From: Hormiphora californensis
Lineage: Eukaryota; Animalia; Ctenophora
DNA length: 64,000 nt
Assembly: GCA_020137815.1 (NCBI GenBank)
Contig: CM035358.1
Coordinates: forward strand, 5,828,001 to 5,892,000
Reading direction: 5' to 3'
Of the stretch, positions 6,633 through 28,821 are shown piece by piece. Under the pieces are notes generated by a model. That model was not told where the DNA came from, did not search any database, and was given only the letters and a program-made list of their open reading frames with translations. The stretch's first letter is position 1. Each line of letters begins with the position of its first letter. The position numbers and the translations under genes are program-made.

Positions 6633-6673
6633 TTTCAAACTTTTCAACACTACTTTAAACAAATTAATTTGAG
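6633..6673 (+). other. Ctenophore spliced-leader exon copy (SL variant 1) forming the LINE 5' end
   Basis: TTTCAAACTTTTCAACACTACTTTAAACAAATTAATTTGAG directly abuts the ORF1 ATG. An identical 40-mer lies at 17072-17111. It matches the Pleurobrachia SL as recalled. Confidence 0.85.
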
Positions 6674-8074
6674 ATGCCAGATATGACAAATATGGCTACA
6701 CCTACTGATGACAAAAGTGATGGTAATGCCCTTGCCGTTGGAAATCTTGTAAACGCAGCAGATCCCCTTACCAAAAAGATCCTGTCTGCCTACCGCCATG
6801 ATGTGGATTACACCAAGAATCTAGACATCATCCGCACATTCAACTGTGCTCACCTGGAAGCCGCTGCATCGTTTTTCGGTGCATCCCCCGGCTCACATGC
6901 AGATAAAACTAAGCGGTACCAGAACCGCACTACACTAGCCGACTACATCATCATTCAGCTGGAAAGTCATTTTCCTTGTGACTGTGAGGGCTGTGGCGAA
7001 GGGTATGCAGTTAAACCAGGTGAATCTCCTCGTGTCCGCTGTTTTCTTTGCCAGCAGGGGTCTCATGATTGCGAGGCTATGGATGGCACCCTTGGGTCAT
7101 TGACGGGGTCGGTCTGGTTGTGTCTGCCGTGCAAGGACAAAAACAACAAAATTGAAACCTTCATGTGCAACCGAAGTGCTGAAGATCCAGAATCAGTGTT
7201 ATCTGATGAGGAATACGAGTTCAAAATCAGTCCGAAGGCAGGCCGTAGCGGTAAGAAGAAGAGGAAGAAGAAACAAGCTCCTGTCAAGAAAGATCCTGAT
7301 GATCTGGTAACTCCTGTTGGTGGAGTGACAGTTCTAAAAGATGTGGATCTTGGAGACATATCTTCTGATGGAGAGGTGAAACCCCAAGGTGTTCCTAAAT
7401 TCAGCAATGTTTGTGAACGTTATCTACTGAGAGACTGTCCCCATGGCCCAAATGGTGACAAGTTGATCAGTGGTAAGCCTTGCAGCAAGGAACATCCTCA
7501 GAGATGCCTCCGTTATTGTCAGTTCGGAACGGCAACTCGTTCTGGGTGTAACTATGGTGACCAGTGCCAGGATTTTCACCCACCTCTCTGCCATAAGTCT
7601 GAGATCTCCCGAGTCTGTACCGACAAAGAATGTAAAGACACACATTTAAAGAACACTCGGAGAAGTGAAGTAGCCCCTACCAAGGGTAATTCATTGAAGA
7701 CTGCTGGTAACAAAACCAGTGGTGTCCCTCAGAAAGTGGAGCAGAAAGAGACCCCTCGCTCAGCTCCTCCAAACCCAAAGAAGAAGAAGAAGATTAACAA
7801 AACTGAGACCGATCCCCGTGCCGCGACCAATGACATCCGTTCACAAGAGGATTTTCTCATGGCATTGATGGCCTCAGTGAGGGACGAGATTCTTCGAGAA
7901 GTAAAGACGTCACTGAACTCATCTCTACAGTCCTTCAGGGAAGAGATGACGAGGGAACACACACCCCGGCCCAAACATCTGACACTCACACAACCAGGCC
8001 TGAACACCCCGACCAACTACCAAGGGGTTCTGGAACGGTTTCGGAATTACTCCTCATCAACGCCCGCAGTTTAA
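6674..8074 (+). CDS. LINE ORF1 protein (PHD-like finger, CCCH-type zinc fingers, Lys-rich)
   Basis: CDCEGC...VRCFLCQQGSHDC...WLCLPC; CERYLLRDCPHG...CSKEHP, CLRYCQFG..CNYGDQCQDFHP. Confidence 0.85.
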   Translation: MPDMTNMATPTDDKSDGNALAVGNLVNAADPLTKKILSAYRHDVDYTKNLDIIRTFNCAHLEAAASFFGASPGSHADKTKRYQNRTTLADYIIIQLESHFPCDCEGCGEGYAVKPGESPRVRCFLCQQGSHDCEAMDGTLGSLTGSVWLCLPCKDKNNKIETFMCNRSAEDPESVLSDEEYEFKISPKAGRSGKKKRKKKQAPVKKDPDDLVTPVGGVTVLKDVDLGDISSDGEVKPQGVPKFSNVCERYLLRDCPHGPNGDKLISGKPCSKEHPQRCLRYCQFGTATRSGCNYGDQCQDFHPPLCHKSEISRVCTDKECKDTHLKNTRRSEVAPTKGNSLKTAGNKTSGVPQKVEQKETPRSAPPNPKKKKKINKTETDPRAATNDIRSQEDFLMALMASVRDEILREVKTSLNSSLQSFREEMTREHTPRPKHLTLTQPGLNTPTNYQGVLERFRNYSSSTPAV

Positions 8075-10977
8075 CGCCTTCCGCGGCTAGTGACTGTCGG
8101 TGGAAGTTTTCTTTTATCAAGGACTCACTGGAGAATCCGTCAATACCCATCCTTTGCACCGGTATTACGGAGACCTGGTGGCATGATGATTTCTCTGATG
8201 CCCAATTGGAGATTGAAGGCTTTCACCTAACTCGTTGTGACAGAGCGGGTAGAAGAGGTGGCGGTTGTGCACTCTACATTAACAATCAACTGACCCCTTC
8301 CTCTGAGTTCAGATTCTCAGACACGTCCAATAGTGCGGCTGCTGTATACATCAAGGAGACTCACTCGGTTTTCTGTGTTGTGTACAGGGCGCCATCTTCC
8401 CCTGCGAATGATCTTTTTGATGATCTATCCCGTTTCATTGATCAGTGCGAACTCGACAAGGGTTGTCCTGACATCTATGTCATGGGCGACTTCAATATGC
8501 CAGACATAGACTGGGGGACACTCACTGGAGGACCTAGCTCACAGATGCTACTAAAATTTGTGAACTCATATTTTCTCACTCAGCTTGTTGACTCTCCAAC
8601 ACGGGGCTTGAATATTCTAGACCTCGTTCTCACCAACCGGCCAGACTATGTCTTCAAAACTGAGGTATCGGAGTCGTGTATTTCTGACCATAATATGATC
8701 AGCTCTACACTTGGGTTTGGTATCTTACCCACTCGTCAATCAGACCATCGATTCACAGACTTTGATATTTACAACTTTCACGAGGCTAACTTCCCTGAAA
8801 TGTGTAGGGAGTTGGACCAGATCGACTGGATAGCACTCGCCGACATCTGCGATGACGGTGATGGTTCTGATTTCGTTCAACTTTTCACCCTGACTGTTCT
8901 ACAGGTCTTATCTCACCACTCTCGTAAGAAGAAGGCCCGTAAAAAAAGAAGGGACCCTATTCTCAGGAAATTGAAAGTGAAACAGCGGAGTTTGAATAAA
9001 CGGATTACTCTTGCCCGGCAGAATAAACCTCACCTTTTGCCACAGCTAGAGGTTGGTGTTTCCAGAATTACTTGGGCCATCTTGTGTCACATTTCTCAGC
9101 GACTTGATTCTGATGAAAACGAGGCGTTGATAAAACTCAAAGCTAACCCAAAATTCTTCTGGTCATACGCCAACCGAAAGAGGAAGACCCGGTCACGTAT
9201 ACCTCCTTTACAGAAAAGTGATGGGTCACTTACGGACGTTCCCGAGATGAAGGCAGAACTATTTCAATCACAATTTACCTCTGTTTTCAGCACTCCTTCA
9301 AACTCCCCTTCAGCAGCTGCAGACAACATTACTCCTTCTACATGCAGCCTTTCAGACATCGTTTTCTCCACCGCTGATATTGAAAAGGCACTACATGACC
9401 TCAATCCCTATTCAGCCGGCCCTCCAGGAGATGTACCTGCCAGAATTTTACGTGACTGCCGATCATCGCTGTCCTACCCCCTATCCATCTTATGGGCCAA
9501 ATCGTTTGATTCTGGTATTGTACCACCCTGTCTGAAACTTCAGTACATTGCACCCCTCTACAAAAAGGGTCCTAAAATGAAAGCTGAAAATTACCGCCCG
9601 ATCTCCCTCACCAGTCACATTGCCAAGACATTTGAACGGGTTGTAAGATCTCAAATGGTGTCATACTTTGAATCAGAGAACTTGTTTAACGAGTCTCAGC
9701 ATGGGTTTAGAAGCAAGAGGAGCTGCTTATCCCAACTCACTCGTCACATTGACAATATTCTGAACAATCTCAACGACCTTCTTGAAGTGGATGTAATCTA
9801 CTTGGACTTCGAGAAGGCGTTTGATAAAGTTGACATCGGTATACTTCTCGAAAAGCTGCAGAGATATGGAGTTAAGGGCAAACTCCTTGAATGGATCCGC
9901 AGCTTCCTACTAGACCGGAAACAAACGGTCTTAGTCGACGGCGTAGCGTCTTCTTTTGCAGAAGTCAGAAGTGGGGTCCCACAAGGGACTGTTCTCGGTC
10001 CACTTTTATTTCTGATTTATGTAATTGACCTGGAATCCGTAATCAAACACGGTTCTTCTTTGTCGTTCGCTGATGACACTAAAATCTTCTCTGCTATCCG
10101 TACTATGGTTGACAAATTGAACCTACAGGAGGATCTGAACAGTGTGATAACCTGGGCTGACGCTAACAATATGTCCTTGCACCAGTCAAAGTTCGAGGTC
10201 ATGAATTTCACCCTGAATCACACCAGTTCGCTTAGAGAAGTACCGTTCAGTGCTGAGAACTATTCCTATCAACTGTCTGATGGGAGGTTCATCGATCCAA
10301 CAGACACTGTCCGAGACTTAGGTGTTCTACTCTCGAGTGATGGTCAATGGTCGGCCCAAATATCTCGAGTTGTTACCACGGCTAGTCGGGTTGCTGGATG
10401 GACGTTAAGTGCATTTAGATCCAGAACTCGCCGCACCATGATGACTCTTTACAAGTCACTGGTGCGTCCCCATCTTGACTACTGTTGCACACTGTGGTCA
10501 CCTTCCAAAAATGGGGATATCAGTCGTGTTGAGGATATTCAACGATCTTACACCCGTAAGATCGTTGGTCTCAAGGGGCTGAACTACTGGCAACGTCTTC
10601 AAACCCTGGGACTTTTGTCGCTTCAGCGCCGACGAGAGAGGTACACTATGATTCTTGTGTGGAAAGTGTACAACAATGAGATACCCAACAGTACTGACAT
10701 GTGTTTCGTCGACAGTCACCGCTCTGGCCCTAGAGCTGTCGTCCCTCGATACTCGTACGAGGCTCAACGATCTATCTTGTCGCTATATGAACAATCATTT
10801 GCGGTACTGGGGGCAAGGTTGTGGAACACTTTGCCTCGATCTGTAAAGGAGGCCCCAACTCTTTATCAGTTCAAATCTCAGCTAGGTAGTTTCCTCTCTA
10901 CCATTCCGGATACACCCCCCATCAGCGGTTATCCTGCTCAAGCAAACAGCAACTCAATACTAGAGTGGTGTCCATGA
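7834..10977 (+). CDS. LINE ORF2: APE endonuclease plus reverse transcriptase (frame open from 7834, overlapping ORF1)
   Basis: APE motifs LLINARSL, GITETW, VVYRAP, MGDFN, LDLVLTN, SDH. RT motifs YRPISLTS, QHGF, YLDFEKAFD, GVPQGTVLGP, FADD. No stops. Confidence 0.95.
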   Translation, partial: HPFTRGFSHGIDGLSEGRDSSRSKDVTELISTVLQGRDDEGTHTPAQTSDTHTTRPEHPDQLPRGSGTVSELLLINARSLTPSAASDCRWKFSFIKDSLENPSIPILCTGITETWWHDDFSDAQLEIEGFHLTRCDRAGRRGGGCALYINNQLTPSSEFRFSDTSNSAAAVYIKETHSVFCVVYRAPSSPANDLFDDLSRFIDQCELDKGCPDIYVMGDFNMPDIDWGTLTGGPSSQMLLKFVNSYFLTQLVDSPTRGLNILDLVLTNRPDYVFKTEVSESCISDHNMISSTLGFGILPTRQSDHRFTDFDIYNFHEANFPEMCRELDQIDWIALADICDDGDGSDFVQLFTLTVLQVLSHHSRKKKARKKRRDPILRKLKVKQRSLNKRITLARQNKPHLLPQLEVGVSRITWAILCHISQRLDSDENEALIKLKANPKFFWSYANRKRKTRSRIPPLQKSDGSLTDVPEMKAELFQSQFTSVFSTPSNSPSAAADNITPSTCSLSDIVFSTADIEKALHDLNPYSAGPPGDVPARILRDCRSSLSYPLSILWAKSFDSGIVPPCLKLQYIAPLYKKGPKMKAENYRPISLTSHIAKTFERVVRSQMVSYFESENLFNESQHGFRSKRSCLSQLTRHIDNILNNLNDLLEVDVIYLDFEKAFDKVDIGILLEKLQRYGVKGKLLEWIRSFLLDRKQTVLVDGVASSFAEVRSGVPQGTVLGPLLFLIYVIDLESVIKHGSSLSFADDTKIFSAIRTMVDKLNLQEDLNSVITWADANNMSLHQSKFEVMNFTLNHTSSLREVPFSAENYSYQLSDGRFIDPTDTVRDLGVLLSSDGQWSAQISRVVTTASRVAGWTLSAFRSRTRRTMMTLYKSLVRPHLDYCCTLWSPSKNGDISRVEDIQRSYTRKIVGLKGLNYWQRLQTLGLLSLQRRRERYTMILVWKVYNNEIPNSTDMCFVDSHRSGPRAVVPRYSYEAQRSILSLYEQSFAVLGARLWNTLPRSVKEAPTLYQFKSQLGSFLSTIPDTPPISGYPAQANSNSILEWCP

Positions 10978-11155
10978 TGCGTGTTAGTGTGTTATGTGTC
11001 GCTGTGCTGTAAGTGTACTGAGTATTGACTCTTTTTAGGAGGTTTATCTTTTTAAATATCCTGTGTGTTACGCAAATTTATGAATTTGAATTTGAATTTA
11101 TTTGAATTTGAAACCAGGATCAAGTCTTTATCTTATCAGGAACCGGAGATATACT

Positions 11156-11300
11156 CCATTTTTTTTCAACTGTTCACCCCCCAAAGTCGTGCGCGGAATT
11201 GTTTTGCGCGTCTATCACATGTTAACGTGTAGCGCGCGCAGCGTAAATTAAAATATCGCACGCGCACGAGTTGAGGGGTGAACAGTTGAATAAAAATGGA
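11156..11300. mobile_element. Small MITE-like inverted repeat
   Basis: tccatttttttttcaactgttcacccc ... ggggtgaacagttgaataaaaatgga. Confidence 0.5.
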
Positions 11301-12153
11301 CTTTATGACCAATTAACTAATTGTGTGCGCGGCGGCCTGTCGCTTAAATAAAAAATTCGACTATATGAGAAAAAGCCGCGCAAGAGGTGACGCGCAAATA
11401 AACAACGCGCAATGAGATCATATAAAACAACAGGTGGGTGATGTTTACTTGCGCGAACAGCTCCAACCCTATGTCGTCGCGCGTTACGTTGTTAAATGAC
11501 CCGAACCAGGGCGATGAAATTATGGTATCGGTGTCTTGCAGAGCTTGTTCCTGCAGCGAGAGGGAGAAGGGAAGGAGCTGCAGCAGCTGCGCCTGCAGTA
11601 GACAAAGCTGTAACATGACCCTACATTTTATGCATACATTCTTGTGGAGAGGAAAATATAGTTCAAGACTCAGAAACTCATTTGTTGTGTCATTTTGTGG
11701 GGCCCTGGATTGGGCAATTAATCACATGCTGAACAGTAAACATACATGGCTTACACTTAATAAAATTAACACTGATTTCTATGACCAATAAAACACAACG
11801 ACAACTAATACTTTGGGCACGTCGCGCCCTCTTTTTTCGCGCGCGATTTTTCGCGAACCCCTCACACTGCGGAGGGGCTGCTTCGCAGCCAAATTAATAC
11901 TAATAATTAAGGTTCATCGAGTGCCATGTAATCTCAACCTAGTAACCAACATTCACAGCCACACTTCATTTGTAGCCCTGATTATTTTCCTAGTTCTAGT
12001 AATTAATTTTTCAAAGAATTAGGGTAAAAAGGGTAACATGTCCTGGCTTACATTGTGTAGAAGGTATCCACACTCCCACAGACTGAACCAACACAATTGC
12101 GTCCATGTGTCCCTCTATTGTTCGCCCACTTCCACACATTTCCCTTTATACAT

Positions 12154-12925
12154 TTACTCAGCCTTCAGTGCCTTTCCGCCGCCATAAACCCGATACTGGA
12201 ACAGGAAAATATACGCAAAGAAAGCATTTATGGCAGATGGGGCAATAAAATCTGCTGCCCCTGACATGACAGCTGTGAAACATCTCCCGGAAAACTGGAA
12301 ACACTGCATGGCCAGTGTAGCACCACTCATGGCACCAGTACTCTTGGCTTTATAATGCCCCCATGTGGTTGAGATTTTGTTAAAGATCATAATGGGGAAG
12401 ATACATTTCAGAACGATTTGGAGATATTCCAATGGTGTACTGGCAAGGAGTACAGTGGTGGTAGTCTTGAATAGGATTGTTAGGAGTAGATTGCGATGTT
12501 GGGATAGATAGTATCGGGATAGGAGTTGGATAATAAAGACTTGAATGTTGGTTATTATCAGTTCCAGCCAATTACTGTAGTCTAGACCTGGAGAGAAGGA
12601 AGGAAGTGTCAGGACTCAGGATGAGAGTTCTCATTACATACATGTTACAATTGTAGGCAACATTTTGTTCAATGGTGATAGAATTTTACTACTAACCGGG
12701 AGCACAGAAAATTTATTAAAAGACGTCATAATGACTAAATAATTTACCTTGTTTGATGCAAAAAGCGCAAACTAAACTAGTTATAACATCAATGGTAATA
12801 AACATGTTGAAGTTTACCCCAGCCCCACTTTTGGATTGATATATTTTCTGGATTTGGGGCAGAAGGGAGGTGGACCCGACGACAGCGAGGAGGTAGCCAA
12901 ACACTTGCAGGAAAGTAACATCCAT
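12154..12925 (-). CDS. PQ-loop repeat membrane protein (MPDU1/SLC66A3-like); exons 12925..12748 and 12587..12154
   Basis: LLPQIQKIYQSKSGAGVN first PQ loop; second repeat HYKAKSTGAMSGAT; multiple TM segments; in-phase GT-AG intron. Confidence 0.75.
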
Positions 12926-13578
12926 TTTAATAATCAGCTAACCTGGAATGATTTCAGATTTAGTTTAGTTAGACTCTAAGTTGCCGAATAAGGAATAAAG
13001 GTTCATAAACTAAACTTGTGTTCGAAGTTAACAAAGAAGGTAATATGGGGGGGGGGCGGGTAAAAGGGGTTTACACTTTGTCTAGCGAGCTATATACCCT
13101 GCTAACTTAAATAATGCGCCAGTGGCGAGAAGTCCCACTAGCGCGCTCTCAGTAAACAGCCAGTCCAGCGGCAGATTATTTCCCACTGGCAGGTTATTTA
13201 TTTTTAACTCCTACGTAACATTCAAAGTGTGTGTAAATGATCAGTTCTTACTAAAATACAGAGGGAACACTATGTGCAACACTTACACACTACATTGGAG
13301 AGAAAGAAAGGACACATTCCGTCAATTACTCTCTCTTTATCTCCCCTTTTGTCTCACTATCTCTTTCTCTGTGTTATTTGTGACATGCCCCTTATCAGGC
13401 TATTTCTTTCACTCTCTTTCCTTAGCAACTGCTTAGTAACTGTTCCCAAACAGTGTACACTCAATTGTGACGTGTTTTTAACTATTTCTCAGTTCTCTTT
13501 GTGTGTTTTGATTAGTGTTCTCTCTCTTGTTGGTGTGTAATACTTGAAATAAACAACTAAAGCAGGGTATATAACCCA

Positions 13579-13762
13579 TAAACTCTGACCACTGGCACGT
13601 TATAGGTTTAAACCCCTCCGCCTCTCCCTCGGCTCCGCCTCGGGATCGTCGTCGTGATTTAAACCAGTTTATCCGCCAGCGGCGGATAAACTCCAGCTAA
13701 CTTCTCCCAGCGGCGCGCTGGGAGAAAGTTATCTGAAATAACGCGCCAGTGGCCAGAGTTTA
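13579..13762. repeat. Palindromic MITE-like element with nested hairpins
   Basis: taaactctgaccactggcacgttat ... ataacgcgccagtggccagagttta. Confidence 0.55.
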
Positions 13763-15259
13763 TGCCTCATATAAACAAATTACAAATCTAGCTCGATGAA
13801 TGATGGTATTATCAATCGGCTAATCGGCTATATTCTATAAGAATCTCACACTCAGCAGACTCATAACGTATGGTCCATTGTTTACCCACGGCTCTGCTCA
13901 GCCTAATTTGATTTTGTGGCAACCTGAGCCCACTGGAGGAAAGAGAGAAAGAGCTTTGAAGCGGCTCTACGGAATCTGATTTTTGTGCAATATATACGGC
14001 CTGTAAAATGGAATGATATGCCCAGCTAGAAATAATAATAATAAGAGAATAAATATATCGCACACACTCTCACAAGGTGCTACAGAGCAGGGAAATATAT
14101 ACCACACAGCTCCTCACACAGCCAAGAAAGAAAGCAATCAATGGTATCACTACCTCACACCATGTACAGGATGGTGTGAGAAAGAGAGGGTCAAGAAAGG
14201 TATAACACTGTACAGTGTATAGATTCATTAAGACATTAAATACTGGACATGACTCTTTTCAAACAGATCAGGCACATACAGGTCACAGGAATAGGGACCC
14301 ACACTATTTTACAAATCCTGCATGAACGATGTGGTATGTTTACACAGGGAGGAATATGTTTTGAGAGAGGGACTGAGGACGGAAAAGGAACTACATTGAA
14401 ATGAAATACTGATGCAGCTGACATGACTCTCCCTCTTTTTCAATGCCTTCCTCTCAGTCTCTCCCTCTCCCTCTCTCTCCCCAAACTGATTTCTCACTAA
14501 CTCTCTCGCTCTCTATGTGTATCTATCTTTCTCTCTTTTTCTCTCTCACTCCTTCTCTCTCCCACTCACTCATAGAGAGGAGTTATACAGTAAGGATCTT
14601 TGACATGTGATCCCCATGTGCTTTATCAGCGGTCAGTGGTTGGAGATACGTGGCACCGTTATCTCTCTAATCTCTCTGATCTCTCTCCCACTTGCTTGTA
14701 GCTCACTTTGGTATGTGTTCCTTTGTGCCCCTATCTTCTTCTTCTAGGTAGAAAACACTACGACTCCAAGAAGTACACCCCAGAAATCCCGAATTTCTGG
14801 ACGGGGTACCTCAAGGCTGTGGAACGTAACCATTGTGCTACATCCCTTCATCTTGGTGACGCAGTCACCCTTACAACTCGCGCGCGTAGCGCGCGAAAAC
14901 GAAGCCCGCGAAGCGGGCTGAGTTGTAAGGTGATGGCATCACCAACCCTTCATCTCAGCCCCTCACGGGGCTGAGACAGCCTCTAGTCTCTACGAAGAAG
15001 AAGCTCCCTATCACATCCATCCTCCGCTAAATTCAAAATTTTGTTCATTGTTCAGGCGAATAAAAATCACGTTTCTGAACAGCCTCAGCATCATCTTCTC
15101 AGGACGACCGGAGGTTAACCCTGCTTCCTGTTTCCTCTTTGTCAACAGACACACAGTGGGTCTGACCCACTGGCCACTTCACATATTCCTACCCAATCAG
15201 CAATCCAGTGACTGAGACTCAAACATTCCTCCATCCTCCTAGACTTCGTGGATGGTCCA

Positions 15260-16047
15260 GACACGCTCTACATGCAAGATCCAGCATGTTCAGTTTACTG
15301 AGAATCAATGCCTGTTCATCTACACGGAGCGAGAAAAGGGGACTTCCTACCGATCCATCAGAACACACAGTAGAGCCTGGTATTCCCTCCCCGCCCCGGA
15401 TTCCCAAACAGAACCCCTGAGGACAATGCGATCTACACCTCCTGGAAGCGGACCAAGGATTCTGGCAAAATCTCCAGCGACAATGAGGGGAACAGCGGGA
15501 GAAGAAGGACTGCTAGATCCCGCTCTAACATTTAACTACCATGTCCGCTAACATCCTAAAATGGGATCCAGCGTCTAGCTTTCTGGCAGAAAACGACAAA
15601 CGTGCTGCAGCCCTGGGGATTAAGCGAACCAGCCTGTGACGGATTCTGAGGAAAGACCTGCCCTTCAGGACCTACAGAGCGGACAGGAGGCAGACCCTTG
15701 TGCCCACCTTAGGAGGAGGCAGTTCTGCATCTGATTCGATAGCCAGTTACTCACCGACCACTACTTCCTCGACTTCATTCTTTGGACAGATGAGGCTAAC
15801 ATCCATCTCGAGTCTCAACGGATCCGTCTGTAGGAGTACCAACATATTCTGGGAAGCAACTCCACCTATAGGACACACCTGGACGAAGTCTAACTACTCC
15901 CAAAAGCTCGTCATGTGGGCTGGATTGAGCTCCGTCCTATATAGGCTTGATCTGATAGGCTCCTTATTCATACACAATGCTGCTGGTAACTCCGCTACAA
16001 TGAACTCTTCTCGATACCAGGATATGCTGCAAACCCTAGTCTTCCCC
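15260..16047 (+). pseudogene. Decayed Tc1/mariner (DUF4817-type) transposase
   Basis: RAAALGIKRTSL*RILRKDLPF (HTH), a DEA motif, SQKLVMWAGLS, MNSSRYQDMLQTLVFP; frameshifts and stops. Further fragments near 16670-16800, 18625-18720 and 19200-19430. Confidence 0.65.
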
Positions 16048-16440
16048 CGGGAATGCCAAGAGAACTGGGAGTAGTGGGAGTACTGTATTCCCAGGGAGCC
16101 AGCAGTGAAGGAGCCCCGCATCTCACTGACGTTCCGTAAGCTGTCCCCTATCCCCATCTCCGACACCCCTTCCCGTGTTCCCCCTGTTAAAGAACCCGAG
16201 ACTCCCCAGCACCCTCCTAAACGGGTTCTAATACTGTCGGACTCTATGTTCAGTGGCATCAATAGGGACTTCCCATCTGGTATTCCAGGTCTACAGGTGG
16301 TATACCGTCAGTTCTATCAGCTAACAGACCTGGACAAATACTCCCATATGTTTGAGGGCACTGATACAGTATTCATCTCGGCTGGCATCAACGACATCAC
16401 AAGATATGGTCACCGAGCATGGTCCCTTATGGAGGTAGTG
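16048..16440 (+). pseudogene. Fragment encoding an AlkB-like C-terminus fused to an SGNH-esterase-like domain (probable retrotransposon ORF1 remnant)
   Basis: CQENWE..WEYCIPREPAVKEPRISLTFR followed by KRVLILSDSM and VFISAGINDI. Confidence 0.5.
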
Positions 16441-17071
16441 GCCAGTGGGTCCGATAATCCGGCGCCTTTCCCTAATCATCTTCCACTGTGGTGGCAAGAC
16501 GGAGCATACCCCGGATACAAGCTACATGCGCTACGGAGTTCTCCCTGCCTCTTCCGCCATCTGGGAGCGGCTTTCATACATTCTCGGACACCACCACCTC
16601 CCTCAACCGGCGTGTTATTGCAATGGCCTCCACCAACACCCTCGAAGTCCTGAACCAACACCACTCTACCCTCTATCTGGATGGAACTTTCAACCTGTCG
16701 ACCACTTGACGCCCACCACCGGTTCCAGTCCAAAAGTAACAGTCTGGGCTGGAATTTCTACTATCACCGGAGTAATTGGACAATTTGTCTTCCGCGATGC
16801 TCCTCTCCCACCACCTGCATCTCAACCCCTCCTTAAAATCTGTTGATCAGTGGGCGTATCGCTACATGCTCGAAACCCAGGTCTTTCTAGCCCTTGGGGA
16901 CTTCTTCAACAACAACCCTCATCTCCTCCCCCTCCGACCACCGTTATTCTGACAACAGAACGGGGCACCTTGCCATTAACCGTACCACATCCGGGAGCTG
17001 CTGGAGATCTACTTCGGAAACAGGATCATCGCGAAATTCAACGGCAGACAGAGGAATCAGCCAGCTCCACC

Positions 17072-18302
17072 TTCAAACTTTTCAACACTACTTTAAACAA
17101 ATTAATTTGAGTTTCAGCAACATGTCGAAGTAACGGCCCCAAAGGGCAGAAAACGATACGATGCCAAAATATTGTGGAAACAGACGACAGTGCTGACCTG
17201 AAGGCGATCCTGGGGAAGTTGCACGAAGAAGCCAGTGATGAAGTGAAGCGATTGATCCAGGGGTATGATCCGACGAAGAAGCACAATACGAACCTCCAGA
17301 GAGACTTGAACTTGATAGAGGAGTGGAGCCGGAAGAACAACATGGCTCTCTCCACAGAGAAAAAGTTTCAGGTCCTGAATAAGGTTATAAACTCCACGAA
17401 GCCACTGAGAGATCTACCTTTCAATGCTGTGAATGCTATTTCTACTTCAACCCGAACGGAGATATCATCGAAGCAGAATTCGGAGTAAAAGACCTGGGAT
17501 ATACCTGACAGAGGATGAGAAAGTTCGATTTCCACATCGCAAACCATCGCAACAGAGGCCAAGAGGATCGCTGGATGGGCCCTCGGAGTGTTCAGAAACC
17601 GGTTTCGAAAACGACGATGAAACACTTTTCAAGGCATTGGTCAGGCCAAAGCTAGAATACTGTCGGCTCTCTGGGTCTCCCACGACGATTGGTAAACATC
17701 GCTAAGCTCGAGGGAGTCCAGAGATTTTACGCGGCGGATCGAGGAGTGATCGGGATGGACTACTGGGAGAGGCTCAAGTTCCTGGGGATCAGTCACTTCA
17801 ACGGCGACGGGAGCGATTCATGATAATCCATCTCTGGAAAGTAGATTCATGGACTCAGTCCCAGAAACATACCACCAGGCCCGTGGACGAGTCATTCAAG
17901 GTTCATCACACGGCGAGGTCTCCTAGCTGAATACCCGACCTTACACTTCGGCCCAAGATTCAATTGAGAACCATCAGGGAAGGAGGATCATCTCAGTGAG
18001 GTCAGTCAAGCTCTTCAATAGGATGCCGAAAGAAGTTCGAAGATGCGAAACACTAGAGGATCTCAAAGTTTCTCTCGGTAAGTTCCTGGATGGTATACCT
18101 GATCACCCTCCAGTTCGGGGCTACAGGAGTCCCAACGACAACTCATGGTTACACTGGCTCCCCCCTGGGTAGTGTATGTTGGTCACTGCATCATTCACAT
18201 CATGTTAGTCGAGAAGCAATGCTGAGAGAACGTGGTATATTTGTCTTTATGCATTGTATGCCGAATCTAATTTTGTAAACTTGTAAACTTGTAAACTTGT
18301 AA
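17072..18302 (+). mobile_element. Internally deleted CR1-group LINE starting with SL variant 1
   Basis: SL at 17072-17111. The ORF1 N-terminus (ILGKLHEEASDEVKRLIQGYD) is fused to the RT C-terminus (LQRDLNLIEEWSRKNNM, LFKALVRPKLEYC, DYWERLK). (TTGTAAAC)n tail. Confidence 0.8.
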
Positions 18303-19602
18303 TGGACACCCACATGGATACCCACAGCTACCTCTACGACAGCCTCCTCCTCCCGCTAGAGGACGACGCCCCGGTCAGAATCCTGTCCCTACACCACTAC
18401 ATGATTACCCGCAAGGAGCCCGGATTTAACGCCATGCGACTATTCTTTGTGGGGCTGCCACTCGGCAGTGCCCCTAACGTCCCTACACTGATCCAGGGGA
18501 TCGATTCCTCTTACTCTCCAGCCTTATCGATCCTTCAAGTGCCAACAACTGTACCCCAGCGATCCACCTGCCCGCCTTCGATACATCAACTGGTTCGAGA
18601 GTGAACTGCAACTGATCCCATCCTTTCTCTGACCACATCTTTTACACTGATGAAGCGGCCGTGCACATTAATGGAACCATCAACCGATTTAACAGATATA
18701 TCGCTGGTGTCCAGCCATTGGACCTTTCATCTTCCGGGCTGCTCCCCTCCCACCACCTGCACCTCAACCCCTCCTTGGAGCACTGCACCCTTGAAATCTG
18801 TTGATCATTGGGCGTATCGACTATCGCTACATGCTCGAGACCCAGGTCTTTCTCCATTAACCCCCAATTGTTGCTGTCAATTGTCATCTCAATTGTCATC
18901 TCATACCCTCCCCCATACCAACCTCGATCATGCTTCCCTTCTATAGCAGACTACCTTTGCCGAGGACTGAGGAGCTTGGGTCACCCTGAGAAGCCCTAGG
19001 CCTAGCTAGGGAGGGAGAGGAGGAGCGCTCCTCTCCCTCCCTAGCTAGGCCTAGGGCTTCTCCGGAGCCTTACATCCCCTATCCATACCAGAGGACTAAC
19101 CGTCACCATTATACCAGAGGAACCAACCCCGTGGGCTTTCGTCTCAACAAAATCAATAGCCTGGAACTGGTACCAGAAAGGAACCCGTCTCACCGACCAC
19201 CGTGATGGATCTGGAGGAAACGACCATAACAGCCGCCAACACGGAACAGCACCCCCGCCAATTTCGGAACTGTCAGAGCATCATTCTCCGGCCCTTTAAC
19301 CCACGTATGGGCCGGATTCAACACCCGCATTGGACCCTTCTTCCTGGAGGACCTTCCTGCAGTACAAGCTTCTGTCAATGAACAGTAACGGATATGAACA
19401 GCTGCTGAGGACTAAAATCATCCCCTTCATCTCATATTCTCATACCCTTTCCCGGCCCCAAAGGTACATACCTGCTTCCCTTCTATAGCAGACTACCTTT
19501 GCCGAGGACTGAGGAGCTTGGGTCACCCTGAGAAGCCCTAGCTTAGCCAGGAGAGGAGCCCTAACATCCCCTATCCATACAAGCGAACTGCCCGTCACGG
19601 AA

Positions 19603-19870: not shown

Positions 19871-20071
19871 ACCCGTCACCATGATACCAAGGGGCGAGAC
19901 ACACTGAAGTTGAGCACGCTCGTTCAAATCTCAACCTGGCCTCGCGACACACACTGAAGTTCGAAGTTCGAAGTTTCGCGAAAACCCATTTTCGGCTGAG
20001 AAATCATTTGTAAGAGGCTAACTTGTTTACTGGTACATCTCTCGAAGTGTCCTTTGTCCGTACCGAGTCAA

Positions 20072-20113
20072 TTTCAAACTTTCATCAACTACAACGTAAA
20101 ACTATTTATTGAG
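20072..20113 (+). other. Second spliced-leader variant at the 5' end of the L2-type LINE
   Basis: TTTCAAACTTTCATCAACTACAACGTAAAACTATTTATTGAG shares the TTTCAAACTTT start, ACTAC core and TTGAG end with SL variant 1. It is close to the second Pleurobrachia SL as recalled. Confidence 0.7.
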
Positions 20114-22509
20114 GCGGCATCCCCCCTCAATTGTTTCAGTCGTATGACCCTACAATAACTTGAGGAAGCTGATTAAAACAATGGACTGCACCAGTAGTGC
20201 AAACTGAAAAGCGGTGGCAGAGTTGGATTATTCGATCGAGTATCCCAGTGACCAAATCTCCTGCTCCCCTAAATCTCTGACTGAATCTACGCCTCCAGGT
20301 GTGTATATGCGGTAAGAAGCGAAGAAGGCTTCGATAAAATGTAGCGGCTGCAAACGCACATATCATGCAGAATGCGTCTCGCTGATTGGGCTTTCTCAAA
20401 CCACGCTCAATACCCTTACTCGGTCCTGGATGGGAAATGTCCCCTGTTTAGTGTTCAAAATGGCTTTGCGATAACTTCTTTCGCCATCTTGATCACTGAA
20501 AGTGTTAACCTGGTAACCCGTGAAATCAAAGAGGTGGAGCACATCCCATTTCCCCCGAGGCTGTTACCCAATCTCATGTTCTGATCCCACACTAACTTCT
20601 GTTAAACCACCCTCTAATCCTAACATTTCTTCCCCTGAAATCCCAGGCCCCTCCGTGGAGATTTCCCGGTGATCTACGTCTTCCTCAGCTTCGCGAGATA
20701 TCCGATTCTGATCGACCCACACATGCTGATCAGTAACCCGACAGTACTGCATGGCAAAACAGCCGGTTCTCGTGAGGAATAACCGTCACCTTCTCTCAAG
20801 TCCTCCTGCTTTACTTCCGCTACTAACCATGCCCTTCTCCAACACCATCTAACCACTGCTGCTAACCCTTCCCGCCTCCCATTCACAGGATATAAATGTT
20901 TTCTCTGATGATACCAAAGTTACCCTGCACAGATCAGAAGAATATGAAGGATACCCCGGTAAGAGCCCATGAGGGTGAAGGAAAAAAAGTTACTTCTCCT
21001 CTTTGGAGATGAGAAAACAAAGACAGATGCGCTGGAATACTAAGGGCTGAGATTGATGAATCAAAGCTACAGACAAACAGTGGGGGTAAAGGTTACTGTA
21101 TTCAACTTACCTGTCCCTGAAGAGGTATTAGACTCTGAAATTCCAGAATTCATCACGGATAACCTTGCTCGGAAAAACCCAGAAACCCTGAAAAAACCAG
21201 ATTTTAAAGTGGTGTACTGGAAACGACATGTTTAGAAGACCTGAGTCATGAATGTGAGGATCAGAGTAAGTGAAGGAGTTTCGGGAGACACTGCTGAGAA
21301 CGGGATGCTAATTTTGATCTGACCAGATGCAGAGTTGAGCCCTTTGCCTTCTTAAACAGTCACCATTGTCAACGACCGTCACAGTACAGACAAGTGTCCA
21401 TCAAAGGATAATCTGCGACATGCATGTATTGCTCAAAAACCACACAAGTGCTTCATGTCCCACAAAAGATCAGCGAGAAACCTATCAATGCTCCAACTGC
21501 AAGTCTACTGATCATCATGCAGCTTACCAAGGCTGTCCAGAACTACAAAAACATATGGATGAGATTTCAAAAAACCGGAATCGTACCTCCAGTTGCGAAA
21601 TAAACTGTTGCTCGCTGACAAGCCAGATGAGAGTCTTTGGTTATTGAGCCGCTCGTGACAGAGGTTGGATGTAGTTTGTCACAGGACTTGGCTGAGATGA
21701 GAGTGCTATTAGGGCACTGATAGGAGTTCGGAACACTCCTTAGTAAAGTCGGGGTATGAAGGAAAGGAGTGGAGTGGTTTGCACAAGGAATGTCATGTAG
21801 AAGACGAACCTAAGTGATCTGTAATGTAAGGCACTGAGGGGCGTTAGAAGCAAGGGCTAAAGGGGAGAGGGAAAGGGGAGGGAGGAAAAGCAAGCACTAT
21901 AACTCGATGAATCCTAGAGGCAACAATTAGTGGGAGCATCTCCAGGAAACAGTTTTAGCGTAGTCTACAGCTCACCGACCAGGCGAAGAAATTCAGTGTT
22001 CTTAGATGAGTGGGAGGACTTTCTCAGGCTTCACTGAACGCAAAGGATCCCTTTTGGGTTGGTGATTTTATTACGTTCACGTTGAGCGATCAAATGACAA
22101 ACTTCTACAGACCTCTTAGGAATACTGAAGACCATGGCTGGAACAAGTGGTTAAGTCCCAACTCACAATAAAGGGGAACTCTCGATTGTATATCACGTGC
22201 TTCACCTGAATCACCGGATAACCCAACATTGTGTCTGAGGAGAAAGTTTACTTACCTGATCACTATTTAGTGAGTTTTCGCTATCATCTGGTATACAACT
22301 CACGAGAAGAACCGAAGGTCGTTATAACCAGGTCCTTCAAGGATTTGGACATGACTCCTTTGTGGAGAGGATAAATATCTGATTGGTCGGTATTGATCAC
22401 AATGTCTTTAGAAGAGTGTATAGACTATACAACAGCGAATGCGAAAGTTTCTTGACAAAGAGGCCCCTGAAGTCCAGACGGTTTCACAGAAGGAAGGCCT
22501 GTTGGTACA

Positions 22510-25500
22510 CACGGTGCCCTGAAGGACGTTCCACCTCGACGAGCCCCCCAAAAAACGAACGTTGTGGTGACCCCTAAGGGGACCTCTGGGAACTACGCAG
22601 GACCGTGGGGGAAAAATATCATAGTAGGTAAGGAGAAAATCGCATTTTCCCTCACACTGGCCAAATTCTACATTCCACACTTTCAAATCTTATTTTTTGG
22701 CCCAAATCAATCACCTAGGGTTTTTTGACACGCCGAATCGATTGCCGCTGGAATTGGAACTACAAATCCACGGCAACATTGTTAAAATGGCGTTTTTTGG
22801 TTTTTTTGGCTTTTTGCCCTGAACTGCATTTATATGACGAGTGAGACTTCTGACTATATTTTAAAGTGTTCTCGGTCGATTTTCTTCCGATTCAAATTTT
22901 TGTGAAAATCGGTTACCAAGTAGATAAACGTTAAAAATACAGCACTAATGAAAATGACTGTTTCAGATGAGAACAATGTACGCTCATACCTTTCCAAGTA
23001 GATCTCTTCCCAGGCAAGAAACAGTGCTACTGGTCGATCAAAACATGACTTCTACATTCCCTAGAGGATGGAGGGAGTGGAACATGGTGAGTACAAAATT
23101 AAAATTGATTGCCAAGTTACATTAATTGTTAGACAGGATTAAAGTACGCAACCGGGTATAATATAAAGAAAATAGTTTTATAAAATAATCATAAATCATC
23201 ACTGTCCTGTGATCAGTACTTAAATATACAAATGGGTCCCGCCGAGATAGTACTGTCCCGTGGCACAAGTGCAGGTTGTGATGAAACAGGGACATCGTTG
23301 CTGGTGTTCCTGTTTCATGTCCCTAGGTAAAGGAGTCTCACCAAACCCAGCGTTTAAAATTGTCACAAATAGGGCATATTGATCTCCAGACCCACCAAAG
23401 CTTCACATTCTGTGGCTCAGCTGGCCAAACAATAACATTCACATTGGGGTTCTTTAATTTGTCCAGGTACCCATTCGTCATCGGAGTTATATGATGAATC
23501 GTTTATCCAAGCCAATTAATCATTACTTGCACTATCAAAATCATTCATTCTCCTCCATACTCATCTCGTCTTGTCTACATAGGTGATGAACCCGAAATCG
23601 ACCCTATTTCATTTTGCATGGTTTTCTAAACAAGCTAGCTGAATTGGTTCAAACTGGTTAGGTAGGCAATCTAAATTACTGATATTGAGAGCAAAATCGG
23701 AACAAAATGGAGGGAAAGGGTGTTAAACGGTTGTACAGGTCAGAAAGATTTCTAGAAGGCAGAAACAACATTAACCACATGCGATATACACTGTGGCCCT
23801 ATATTGCATTCCTGGATTTTAATTAGGAATGCTGGACATTCTCTCTCTCTCTATCATTATATATGATTCTCTCTGCTTGGGGTCTATATGTCTCTCCCAT
23901 TCTCTTTCTCCATTATTATGTATCTTGCTCTTCCTCTCTCGCTATCTCTCATTCTTTTTCTCTCCCTCTCTCCCTCTCCTTTTCATCTTTCTCTCACTCT
24001 GTCGAACTAAGAGGAGAAGTACTGGAGGGAAGAAGAAAGGTAGTTTTTCAGTCGAACGAATTTTGAGTTTGACCTGGACAACATATAAGATACCCAAATA
24101 AATCCGTTGGTAGGGTTCCAACAATCCAAAAAAAACAGGGGGAAGGGAAGTTAACAAGCTACTCGAAAAATTACCCCAGCTATCAGTTGATATTCCATCC
24201 GAATTGGGGCTATATGTCGAATTTGACATCCTACAAGAATGTTATCCACACTGTTTTGGAATGACTCTTTATCCCGGTAAATACTAGAAAACTTTTTCAC
24301 TGACAATTCTAAACTGTCCTTATTCTAATGCACTCCTTACATTGCAAATTCATACTACAGCATAAATATGCCCCAAATGTTTCGGAATTGTACTACAGTC
24401 GGACCTCGATTAGTGGCATCCTTGCGGGAAAGGGTTTTGACCATAAATCGGGATGCACACAATTGGGGTGCCACTAAATCATGGTCCGAATGTAGCATCT
24501 ACCACCCTCTCTCCAATCAGGATACAGGTCGGCAATACAGGAGTTCAGGGATTGCCTCTCCACACTTAGGGCCTACTATGGAACATCCACCACCACCAAG
24601 TTCCACATCATTGAGGAACATTTGGAGAGTTATAGATTATAACTGGGTAGGCTCTAGGGATGTTCTCCGAGCAGGAGCTGGAGAACGCACATTCTAGTTG
24701 GAATGCACTGTGGTCCAACACAAAGTGAACAACATGACCTCGCCCCACTACAAACTGCAGCTGGGAAGAGCGGGGCTAGCTTATAACGCTTCTCGTATAG
24801 ACTCACAGCATACAAAACTATTTATGACTATACCATTACACTTTTAATTTTTTATACCCGGTTGCGTACATTTAATCCTGTCTAACAATTAATGTAACTT
24901 GGCAATCAATTTAATTTTTTACTCACCATGTTCCACCCCTCCTATCCTCTAGGGAATGTAGAAGTATGTTTTGATCGACCAGTAGCACTGTTTCTTGCCT
25001 GGGAAGAGATCTACTTGGAAAGGTATGAGCGTCACATTTTCTCATCTGAAACAGTCATTTTTATTAGTGCTGTATTTTTTAACAGTTTATCTACTTGGTA
25101 ACCGATTTTCACAAAAATTTGGAATCGGGAAGAAAATCGACCGAGGAACACTTTAAAAATATAGTCAGAAGTCCTACTCGTCATATAAATGCAGTTCAGG
25201 GCAAAAAAAGCGAAAAAAAACCCCAAAAACGCCATTTTAACAATGTTGCCGTGGATTTAGAGTTCCAATTCCAGCGGCAATCGATTCGGCGTGTCAAAAA
25301 ACCCTAGGGTGACTTGATTTTGGCGAAAAAATAAGATTTGAAGTGTGGAAGTAGAATTTGGCCAGTGTGAGGGAAAATGCGATTTTCTCCTTAGGCTACT
25401 ATGATTATTTTCCCCCACGGTCGCTGCGTAGTTCCCAGAGGTCCCCTTTAGGTCACACAACCGTTCGTTTTTTTGGGGGGCTCGGTCGAGGTGGAACGTC

Positions 25501-25516
25501 CTTCAGGGGCACCGTG
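22510..25516. mobile_element. 3.0-kb non-autonomous DNA transposon with ~650-bp TIRs (Chapaev/CMC-like)
   Basis: CACGGTG...CACCGTG termini and 4-bp TSD TACA. Removing it rejoins the L2 ORF2 (KACWY | ..AKRKRRKAER). Confidence 0.85.
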
Positions 25517-28500
25517 TACAGGCTGACGTGTCAAGTAGCCAAGCGAAAGAGAAGGAAAGCAGAAAGGATGCTTATGGTTGTGAAGAAACGGTCCGGTGAT
25601 ATTTTGACAGCTCTTTATGAACTGAAAAAAGCGAACGCAGAAGCCACTGCTACTATCAAGACTGCAAGGCGTGATTTCTACCACAAGAAGATTAGTGAAT
25701 CCAAGAACAATGCTGCACGCCTTTTTCGTCTTACGAACTTATTCTGGGGAGGACTAAGAATCCAACAGAGAAACCTAGGGGTTGGAAGATGCAGAGCTGG
25801 CTGAGGCTTTGCGACTACTTTAAAAAGAAGGTGGACGACATCTATGAGAAGATTGAGATAGAGGTGAACGGTTGTCCTGTCCTGAATCCCTGATCCTGTA
25901 CTAAAGTGCAATTTGAAGAGTTCCAGAATCTAACAGACGAGGAACTTATCAAACTATCCGTTCTATGGCGCATAAGCATTGTGACTTGGATCCGATCCAA
26001 CTCGATGATATCGAACCTCCTACCTGAGCTGATAGAGATGGTGTCCCACATTGTCAATACCAGTCTCACCAGTGGAGGTTTTTCCGCTAATCTTAAAGTC
26101 GTCAAGTCAGACCGTCTTTTAAGCTAAAGCAAGGTGATAAAGAAGATCTGAAAAACTATCGACCGGTATCTAATTTAGTTTCATCTCAAAAGTGATAGAA
26201 AAGGTGTTTCCTTCAGCGACAGGGTACCTGGAGACAAACAACCTTCTAGGTAGATTCCAATCAGCATATAGGAGGGTCATAGTGTTGAGACCACAAATGT
26301 AAGATACTTGATGACTTGCTACTCCTCACAGATGATAACTCGAAGGCAGTGCTTGTTGTTGACTTAAGCGCTGCGTTTGATACTATTGACCACGAAAGGC
26401 TACTCAGGAAACTTCGTAACACCTATGGGATTGGTGGTAAAGCACTGGAGTGGTTCAGATCGTACCTCACAGGAAGATCATCGTCTGTGAAGATAGGTAG
26501 TGCATCCTCAACGCCCCGAGAAGTAACTATTGGGTTACCACAGGGTAGTATTCTGGTCCATTCTGTTCATAATGTACACCAAGGAGTTGGAGCAGATTGT
26601 CCAGTTGCATGGTATGAAGCTACATCTGTATGCTGATGACAGTCAGTTTACTGCTCTTTCAAGAATGCTGAGCTTGTGCAACCGAGGAAAAAATTAACAG
26701 ATGCCTACTTGATATACAAAAATGGATGGCTAAAAACCGCCTTATGCTAAACTCAGGAAAAACAGAAGTGTGTGTAGTAAGATCCGCATAGATCGTGAAC
26801 CAAGCCAACCAAACTCACTGTCTTTGGAACACGACTGACACAGTTGTGTCGGCGAGAAATCTTGGGGTGGTCTTTGATGAAAAACTTAGCATGGAGAAAC
26901 ACGATTCACGTCGTCCGTGGATGCAGGGCTAACTTACCAACCTTTGGAGGATAGGAGATATGCTGAACTGGCAATCTAAGATAAGGATGGTAAATGTGTT
27001 CAATGTTCATACATTCCAAGCTTGACTTCTGTAATTCGCTTCTTAATGGAATTTCGGCAAAGCAACTCAATAGACTACAGAAGATCCAAAATTCAGCTAC
27101 AAGGTACATATTCGAGTGGAAGAAGCGAAGAGGAGTTACGGCTCTCAGGCGATGGCTACATTTTCTGCCAGTTGAAGCTAGGATTCACTTTTAGGTCTGT
27201 CTGTTGATGCACCAAGTTGTTCATGGTTATGCACCTGACTATTTGAACCATGAGATCCAAAAAACGTCGACCAAAATCTGTCAATCTTCGTGCAAATAAC
27301 GACAAAACCTTGCTAGAGGAGAAGATTCATGGTGACCTAAAGCTGCGACATAAAATCACTGAAGAGGAATTTCCATTGGGGTCCAGTTATTTTGGAACAA
27401 TCTGCCAAGAAAAATCCGGCAACTGGAAACTGTTAATCTCTTCAAAAAGCAACTGAAGACCTATCTCTTTGTGAAGACCTATGGAGGCTCATACTCCGTG
27501 ATCTAATATGTTTCAATCACAATCAGCTCTGGGACCACCGCCTCAAGACACCCGTGGGTCCCTCTTTTCTGCAGTCTATGCCTCAGCTTCTAGTTCTCTC
27601 CTAATGGACCCCCCTCCCCCCCCTTGGTGCCCCCTTTCTACACTCCATTCTGTGCACCCCCTTCTATATCCTCCCTTGACCGTGGGCACCTTCTCTTTGG
27701 CAACTCCTTTTCAGCACCTCTCCCTGGAGCTCTTCTTGGGTACCCCCTTTTGACCATAAGTACCACCACCTTAGGCTTCCCTCCGCATCCTTGAACTTGC
27801 ACTTATCCTTCCTCCTGGAACCTGCTTCTGTACCCTCCCTTCTGGGTACCTGCTTCTTACACCCCCGCCCTCTTGGTACCTACTTCTGCACTCTCTCCCC
27901 CTCGAACCTGCTTCTCCTTATACATCTCCCTTCCTGGGTACCTGCGTCTGCACTTCCTTCTGGGCACCTACTTCTGCACCCTGCCTCTTGGTACCTGTTC
28001 CTGCACCTCCCTCCTGGTCCTGCTTCCACCATCTCCAGTCTCCCTCCTATGTCCTCCCTCTACACCCTTCCCTCCTGGAACCTGCTTTGCACCCTCCCTT
28101 CTGGGTACCACCGTTTCTAACACCTCTCCCTCCTGGTACCTGTCTGCACCTCCCTTCTGCATCCCATCCGGATTCATGTCTCCACATCCTTCCACTTTAT
28201 CATACCGGATCTTCCTCCCTGGACAGCTACAAAAACATTACTACCTTTGGTACGTATTTGTTGTGAAATCGGCATTTTCTCACCACCCACCTCCCTGCAG
28301 GGAGTGGTACTGGTTAGGGAGTGCGAACGAGAGACCGATATTTGCGAATGAAACACTAGTAATCCGTGCCGACGATGCACAGGCGCTTAGTAAGGGCCCT
28401 TACCGATACCAATACAAGCGTTTCGGACTTTTGTTGATCGGGGGCTAATTATTAACAATTTAATTTATTCTTTTTAGTGTTTTTAATAAGTTGTGTTTTG

Positions 28501-28821
28501 AAATTGCTCCGGTTGTTGCGAGCAAAATTGCGTTAAGTTCATAAAGACATTGTAATCCACTTGAGAAAGTGATACTTTAGAGAGTGCGTTGGCACCATTT
28601 TTCTGGGTATATATTCACTATTGAGTGGGATATTAAGTGCATAATTTACATTTACATTTACAATTCCACCGCTTTTAAATTTTTTGATGAATTGGGACAA
28701 CTGTGACCGAATTCACCAAAATTTTTAAAAACGGTGAAATTGACCCGGTATTGATAAAGGACACCTTGAGAGATGTACCGGAGGAGGCGTTCGTGAGCAA
28801 GATCCAGTTCCGGAGAACAAT

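Follow-up and report, generated by a model that had tools for sequence, protein, structure and literature searches.

Spliced-leader exons at the 5' ends of LINE retrotransposons in a ctenophore genome and their possible re-use by trans-splicing

Dinoflagellates are said to recycle their messenger RNAs, a proposal for which Slamovits and Keeling (2008) are cited. In the accounts given in the pertinent parts of two papers, RNA capped with a spliced leader (SL) is copied to DNA and then either re-spliced at an AG of the old leader (PMC3229502) or transcribed with the leader used as promoter (PMC3229502, PMC5585692). The pertinent sections on flatworms describe leaders that lack the SL intron beside long interspersed nuclear elements (LINEs) or long terminal repeat (LTR) elements, read as integrated trans-spliced RNA, at 597 loci in one study (PMC12582326) and at six in another (PMC5832876). 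Passages on Hydra report an SL on about 30% of the long reads of transposable elements, including full-length CR1 (PMC12220107), and a part of PMC4035085 describes LINEs that carry HDV-like ribozymes at their 5' ends (L1Tc/ingi, R2). Here we analyse a window, by which we mean a whole stretch of 64,000 nucleotides of the ctenophore Hormiphora californensis (assembly GCA_020137815.1, contig CM035358.1, positions 5,828,001 to 5,892,000 of the forward strand), in which three LINE copies begin with an SL exon. A reading of these letters without database searches, below called the sequence-only reading, had proposed that the RNAs of the elements are trans-spliced to the leader and copied to their 5' end, and that the integrated leader serves in the next round.

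Spliced-leader heads in the window and beyond it

A degenerate pattern covering both variants of the leader matches the window at 6634-6673, 17072-17111 and 20073-20113, all on the + strand; the number of matches expected by chance, from 100 shuffles, is 0.00. A 13-nt leader seed used alone matched no better than chance. Heads 1 (6633-6673) and 2 (17072-17111) share the same 40-mer, head 3 (20072-20113) is a variant sequence, and the leader measures 40-42 nt across the three LINE copies. The bases directly 3' of heads 1, 2 and 3 are ATGCCA, TTTCAG and GCGGCA, respectively, with a GT donor in 0 of 3, and the donor and SL intron that follow the exon in SL genes are absent at all three. Pattern and sequence thus bear out what had been read from the letters, namely three SL-like starts, an identical 40-mer in two of them and no GT donor. 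When compared with the exons of SL RNA genes, heads 1, 2 and 3 are short at the 5' end by 2, 3 and 2 nt. All three copies are co-oriented with neighbouring + genes (3/3, not significant), and at gathering scores Rfam returned no family in the window. The features of the three copies are listed below, with the kind of evidence in brackets.

Copy 1, intact element (6633-11111)
6626..6632, +: 7-nt filler ahead of the leader, repeating nearby target DNA at 6608-6618 (sequence)
6633..6673, +: SL exon variant 1, first 2 nt missing, abutting the ATG of open reading frame (ORF) 1 (pattern match, SL gene comparison)
6674..8074, +: ORF1, 466 aa, cysteine-rich (ORF)
7834..10977, +: ORF2, stop to stop, 1047 aa, with APE-type endonuclease and reverse transcriptase (RT), CR1-like (domain matches)
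11084..11111, +: (ATTTGA)n 3' tail; the interrupted palindromic repeat resumes at 11112-11113 (sequence)

Copy 2, deleted element (17072-18300)
17072..17111, +: SL exon variant 1, first 3 nt missing, head of the copy (pattern match, SL gene comparison)
17112..17160, +: short leader with TTTCAG, a 3-codon upstream ORF and a GCCC-N4-GGGC-AGA hairpin motif common to L009, L015 and L016, loci introduced below (sequence)
17161..18300, +: body, with the ORF1 start fused near 17291 to the last ~290 ORF2 codons; internal deletion and frameshifts (sequence comparison)
18277-18300, +: (AAACTTGT)3 tail (sequence)

Copy 3, frameshifted element (20072-28662)
20069..20076, +: left target-site duplication, its last 5 bases being the first 5 of the leader (sequence)
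20072..20113, +: SL exon variant 2, first 2 nt missing, the same as the SL RNA gene exon in L006, L007 and L014; head of the copy (sequence)
20114..28662, +: body, a frameshifted L2-like LINE with a PHD-like ORF1 start, endonuclease-RT remains and a long 3' region (sequence comparison)
22509..25517, no strand assigned: nested ~3-kb element interrupting ORF2, with ~700-bp inverted ends 92% alike (sequence comparison)
28645-28662, +: (TTTACA)3 tail (sequence)
28661..28668, +: right target-site duplication with 1 mismatch; the palindromic repeat resumes (sequence)

The layout of an APE-type non-LTR element (ORF1, an ORF2 with APE endonuclease and RT, and a simple-repeat tail) is complete in copy 1 and survives as remains in copies 2 and 3. 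Copy 1 was inserted within a palindromic repeat (6488-6625 / 11113-11365), and contigs of the DNA runs X1, X5 and X8 carry the empty site, passing from 6625 to letters found at 11113. The last 4 bases of its filler overlap the leader start, and we infer a microhomology-type join at this 5' junction. ORF1 of copy 1 matched no Pfam family and nothing in viral or prokaryotic contigs, and is 31% identical to ORF1 of the SL-headed locus L010. The nearest named relatives of its RT come from frog, lizard and turtle at 31-33% identity, none of them labelled CR1, and the RT tree puts these on the side of copy 1. We take copies 1 and 2 to be of CR1 type tentatively, from C-terminal motifs, copy 2 standing outside the RT tree.

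Copy 2 is a 1.2-kb internal-deletion form, the ORF1 start of which is related to L010 (E 5e-5) and the ORF2 end to copy 1 (28%). No target duplication could be recognised around it. Degenerate sequence flanks it on both sides (15700-17070 and 18550-18850), with parts sharing 137 bp at 75%; presumably these are remains of Tc1/mariner transposases, to judge by motifs.

Copy 3 also lies in a palindromic repeat (20032-20076 / 28661-28779), with a target duplication of 8 bp that holds one mismatch. Like copy 2, it has many one-base indels, which may stem from decay or from assembly error. In an RT tree of 22 rows, copy 3 and four of the loci described below (L003, L004, L008 and L017) are set apart from copy 1 and its vertebrate relatives (100/100); the row of copy 3 was assembled from matches to L008 and forms a long branch, and the tree includes no named L2 references. 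Summed tblastn bits of copy 3 agree, with 171-203 for this group of four loci vs 56-90. The L2 label itself is our assumption, drawn from C-terminal motifs. At 31740-31793 on the - strand lies a strongly 5'-truncated insertion of the same family, 54 bp that repeat the 3' end of copy 3 exactly.

Comparison with published ctenophore SLs matched variant 1, which is nt 4-44 of the published Hormiphora SL (PMC8527503), and both variants occur in SL RNA genes, as expected from the claim that the leaders are ctenophore SL exons. The relevant section of the same paper reports the SL on 56% of long cDNA reads and in 718 genomic copies, with 491 in Mnemiopsis, treats these copies as leader loci and draws no link to LINEs. 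A metagenome scan with the SL pattern gave 18 matches in 17 loci (cited by handles beginning with L). Of these, 4 are SL-gene loci, 3 hold SL-capped host ORFs and 10 are elements that carry a LINE-type ORF1; every locus that is neither an SL gene nor host mRNA-like was LINE-type (10/10). The pattern had no match in viral or prokaryotic contigs. The loci were picked by the SL, with its 5' part required, and they inform on what follows an SL, not on the share of LINEs without one.

The SL RNA genes (5 matches in 4 loci) show the exon followed by GTAAG, with a CTTTTGG box and a hairpin downstream; read by eye, the box suggests an Sm-like site. One locus (L011) carries variant 1 and three (L006, L007 and L014) carry variant 2, so that variant 2 is also a real SL exon. 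Variant 2 was found on no host mRNA among the scanned loci and is absent from the literature searched; Derelle et al. (2010), outside that search, may list it. Complete variant 1 sits 1-3 nt before the ATG of intron-less host ORFs in three mRNA-like contigs (L001, L005 and L012), of which one encodes a cathepsin, one a proteasome subunit and one a protein without identity. The variant 1 gene and 5S rRNA take turns in a repeat of 778 bp (L011 263-735). In 2 of the 3 variant 2 loci the gene and 18S rRNA are on opposite strands, the gene lying ~1.6 kb upstream (L006 2033-2073 and L007 1683-1723).

The SL layout is general, extending beyond the three window copies to 10 further elements of several families, in each of which a short flank precedes the SL and a LINE-type ORF1 follows 0-188 nt behind it. 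An endonuclease ORF lies behind ORF1 in 6 of the 10 (L002, L003, L004, L008, L010 and L017), and 4 of these 6 have RT. The LINE assignment of the other four is weaker and stays tentative. The coiled-coil ORF1s of L009 and L013 are related to each other (26%), both elements end in simple-repeat tails, and L013 resembles large ctenophore protein clusters; L015 carries a PHD finger, and neither it nor L009 or L013 has an ORF2 within the contig. Relatives of L016 end in three CCHC-type zinc knuckles, which we take to mark LINE ORF1 proteins; its ORF1 did not match that of L003. L009 and L013, SL-headed units of ~1.2 kb in which ORF1 stands alone, followed by a short 3' region and, where the contig ends, by the simple-repeat tail, are possibly non-autonomous ORF1-only retroposons. 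L008 has a GT after the SL; this belongs to the leader start that its sister families share, here one base shorter.

Several side features recur around these heads. The flank of L010 belongs to the same palindromic repeat family as that of copy 1, which resembles miniature inverted-repeat transposable elements (MITEs), at another position, and copies 1 and 3 and L010 all lie inside palindromic, MITE-like repeats, which may reflect a preference for such targets or simply how common they are. Copy 2, L009, L015 and L016, four elements with unrelated ORF1s, share an upstream ORF of 1-4 codons, its stop, two bases and then GCCC-N4-GGGC-AGA, with a 4-bp hairpin, at +19 to +25 behind the SL; the motif, which could be a translation, splicing or promoter signal, occurs once in the window (17122-17150). 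In the diverged families L002, L003, L004 and L017 an acceptor-like GTGT(T/C)AG is kept ~32-36 nt behind the SL (33 in L004), and the likewise acceptor-like GGTGTTTTAGG is conserved directly before the ORF1 ATG. Folded jointly, four L2-like leaders gave a weak consensus structure (-6 kcal/mol, 4 sequences).

Origin of the leader and the proposed cycle

All 13 element heads (3 in the window and 10 in the loci) match an SL gene exon exactly, including 211 of the 211 positions that the pattern leaves free. They lack 0 nt at the 5' end in 1 head, 1 nt in 3, 2 nt in 7 and 3 nt in 2, and the join falls at the last base of the exon, always ahead of the ORF1 start. The exact join at the exon end, the near-complete 5' ends and flanks unlike those of SL genes argue for trans-splicing followed by complete reverse transcription. 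On these sequences, the RNA of the elements was almost certainly trans-spliced to the SL and then reverse-transcribed to within 0-3 nt of the SL end, which upholds the corresponding proposal of the sequence-only reading. The SL-capped CR1 RNA of Hydra offers a precedent for the trans-splicing. Random truncation does not fit a 5' shortfall of 0-3 nt combined with a join at the exon end.

The leaders also appear to be renewed. L002, L004 and L017 have leaders behind the SL that are 75-79% identical and ORF1s that are 59-61% identical, and their SLs, joined at the same homologous base, are unchanged. Related lineages differ in variant: L009 carries variant 1 and L013 variant 2, and copy 3 carries variant 2 vs variant 1 in its tree neighbours. 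Furthermore, the bases just 5' of the pattern fit the SL above chance, with T in 11 of 13 heads (p 2e-5) and GT in 4 of 13 (p 3e-3). An unchanged SL on diverged leaders, the switching of variants and the retention of the first bases indicate that the SL is, at least often, added anew from host genes. Re-spliced copies and dead-end copies alike would be expected to show such renewal.

A LINE normally depends on an internal promoter, since copying from RNA loses the upstream DNA. In the cycle proposed here, the element RNA would receive the host SL by trans-splicing and would then be reverse-transcribed to its cap, target-primed reverse transcription stopping 0-3 nt short of the SL end. The new leader-headed copy would be transcribed from upstream, by read-through or from a start in the flank. 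Its A/T-rich old leader would then close an outron, and trans-splicing to the last AG of that leader, or to one shortly downstream, would attach a fresh, capped SL. The outcome would be a capped RNA of unit length with ORF1 close to the cap.

Whether leader-headed copies propagate through such re-splicing at the old leader, in a self-renewing and promoter-less cycle, is a matter on which the sequence evidence leaves us evenly balanced. Fewer than 50 nt separate the SL from the probable ORF1 start in 6 of the 13 heads (copies 1 and 2, L009, L010, L013 and L016), which leaves little room for a classical internal promoter. The re-splicing at an integrated SL that is described for dinoflagellates is a precedent for the second step. 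We put forward, with somewhat more doubt than belief, that numerous LINE families of ctenophores, belonging to two or more RT lineages, gave up a promoter of their own and have the SL both as their standard 5' end and as the end of the next outron.

Several observations weigh against propagation by re-splicing. Sequence upstream of ORF1 in the family of copy 1 was surveyed in eight runs, as contigs not selected on the SL. In five of these runs (X1, X3, X4, X8 and X13), listed contigs carry another stretch of 11-55 nt before ORF1, and the direct join of SL and ATG seen in the window is bridged by none among the contigs listed. The ctenophore SL has an AG only at its two ends and closes with one that is part of GAG, the weakest type of acceptor. 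A CAG or TAG lies 3-6 nt behind the SL in 4 of the 13 heads (copy 2, L009, L010 and L015); such YAGs should outcompete GAG and be trimmed upon re-splicing, so that their retention counts against it. Finally, a clear second, relict SL is present in no head, and 12 of the 13 have none within 200 nt. The candidate relict in L013, a borderline case, which lies 151-194 nt behind the SL inside ORF1, is a stretch of 44 nt that is 26/44 identical to variant 2 without gaps, starts with AG and ends in TGAG, with ~0.05-0.15 such stretches expected by chance. In the relict scan it was the 1 of 21 stretches at p 0.003, and an equally high score came from 2 of 174 control tiles; with codon shuffles, p was 0.012, and 26 identities were reached by 4 of 410,586 position-variant pairs.

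The leading alternative holds that master elements with a promoter and an outron have most of their RNA trans-spliced, so that the majority of their full-length offspring are SL-headed, promoter-less and do not propagate, much as spliced copies of human L1 (SpIREs) are dead-end products. We consider it rather unlikely. It explains equally well the perfect identity of the SL, the occurrence of both variants and the near-complete 5' ends. It also accounts for the kept downstream YAGs, and two of the three window copies are dead. Before ORF1, the prevailing form of the copy 1 family has a pyrimidine-rich, acceptor-like stretch of at least 30 letters with two AGs, the direct join being the minority form; this stretch may be the outron of promoter-bearing masters. 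However, the contig with the longest stretch has 55 nt upstream, of which the last 30 letters are readable, and would fit a 30-nt leader preceded by 25 nt of SL; a contig of run X5 begins with exactly 25 nt of the SL, followed by 6 extra letters and the ORF1 start. These are fits and not proof, and the 55-nt stretch could be SL plus leader or, equally, an outron end. Run X22, possibly of RNA, contains the SL and has no contig in ORF1 of copy 1, and run X7 returned nothing for the second stretch queried; neither provides evidence on expression. Two further points speak against dead ends: L013 was assembled in one piece, starting 10 nt ahead of the SL and reaching the 3' tail, and many families in two RT lineages would presumably each have to keep a rare unspliced route.

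A second alternative, distinctly improbable in our view, makes the SL a permanent DNA head that acts as a promoter or stands beside one, with transcription starting at the integrated leader, trans-splicing no longer taking part and the head inherited like the tRNA head of a short interspersed nuclear element. The SL exon of Ascaris, an internal promoter element of its own gene, is a precedent, and a promoter role of the leader is proposed for dinoflagellate retrogenes in the sections concerned. Such a head would account for the kept YAGs and the absence of relicts, and the hairpin motif at +19 to +25 in 4 of the 13 heads is in its favour. Nevertheless, it requires zero change at the 211 free positions across distant families, together with switching between two gene variants, and, with 0-3 nt lost from the SL start in each round, the first bases should have vanished and yet are kept above chance.

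Insertion into SL RNA genes, or a template switch of RT onto SL RNA, is very improbable. Chimeras of U6 and L1 are a precedent for template switching, and some non-LTR elements are known to target SL exons, as part of PMC4640811 describes. Nonetheless, in the 8 heads whose upstream flank is long enough, no more than 1-7 of 17 positions agree with DNA upstream of SL genes, the window holds no SL intron or upstream sequence (best 14 of 20), copies 1 and 3 sit in palindromic repeats, and neither process accounts for a join exactly at the exon end that always precedes the ORF1 start. Unlike flanks and endonucleases that are APE-type, not restriction-like, largely refute the insertion, and the distinction from SL-gene-targeting elements drawn by the sequence-only reading stands. 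Least probable of all is an artefact of assembly or polishing that placed SL letters of cDNA reads before elements: the many one-base indels of copies 2 and 3 may be assembly errors, and no listed contig bridges the exact join of copy 1, but the idea is largely countered by the leader of copy 3 lying inside its target duplication, by flank-SL-LINE joins in independent metagenome contigs, and by three DNA runs in which 28-35 listed contigs exit the SL at its 3' end and 24-30 enter at its 5' end with unlike letters.

The heads described here suggest that many of the 718 genomic leader copies in Hormiphora and of the 491 in Mnemiopsis are heads of LINEs. If the cycle is real, most of the hundreds of dispersed leader copies in ctenophores would be LINE heads, and the same cycle may recur wherever trans-splicing arose. 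Propagation of leader-headed copies would also link the survival of retrotransposons to trans-splicing, a process of many separate origins with a purpose still under debate. Even if the copies are dead ends, they offer an identity for many of these leader copies, provide a precise marker of full-length LINE 5' ends and are a warning for counts of ctenophore SL genes and for cDNA mapping.

The remainder of the window

The window also contains a 1.4-kb nested palindrome at 29051-30605 with arms 94-98% alike, either real or an assembly fold-back, and the following host ORFs.

1124-5271, +: long single exon, Sel1-repeat and laminin-G protein (ORF, domain search)
12154-12615, -: short membrane-protein exon (ORF)
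32852-33718, +: long single exon, Rcd1 (ORF, domain search)
44787-47219, -: long single exon, 810-aa protein with no Pfam match (ORF, Pfam)

Comparison with known systems

The contrast with earlier systems drawn by the sequence-only reading stands for NeSL, CRE and SLACS, on flanks and endonuclease, and was overstated with regard to the integrated loci of flatworms and the re-splicing of dinoflagellates. What NeSL, CRE and SLACS share with the present elements is an SL exon adjoining a non-LTR element, as described in part of PMC4640811. They insert into SL genes with a restriction-like endonuclease, whereas the ctenophore elements are dispersed, APE-type and without SL-gene flanks; of the two traits that define membership, SL-gene DNA on both sides and a restriction-like endonuclease, neither was found here.

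The flatworm loci are similar in that a leader without the SL intron lies next to a LINE or LTR element. In the sections that describe them, however, the leaders are called partial, the loci are filtered out and no life cycle is proposed, whereas the ctenophore leader is near-complete, stands at the first bases of the elements and is exact across families. The likeness to Hydra is an SL on CR1 RNA; it concerns RNA only, the passages concerned being silent on integrated copies. Dinoflagellate recycling, as the pertinent parts of the papers present it, works on retrogenes of the host by way of an internal AG, with relicts left behind in stacks, whereas the ctenophore SL has its AGs at the two ends and its heads show no clear relict. 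A search of the literature that left aside subscription papers, Repbase and the supplements of PMC8527503 and PMC12582326 returned no report of SL-headed LINEs in ctenophores. The basic mechanism, the copying of trans-spliced RNA, is partly anticipated in print.

With the ribozyme-bearing LINEs, as the relevant part of PMC4035085 presents them, the proposed cycle would share a principle, in that processing at the 5' end frees the element from a longer host transcript. Those LINEs cleave themselves, whereas the cycle would employ host trans-splicing, which also adds a cap, and Rfam searches at E up to 0.5 found no ribozyme family in the 10 element loci. If leader-headed copies do propagate, host trans-splicing would be a third solution to the loss of upstream DNA, beside internal promoters and 5' ribozymes.

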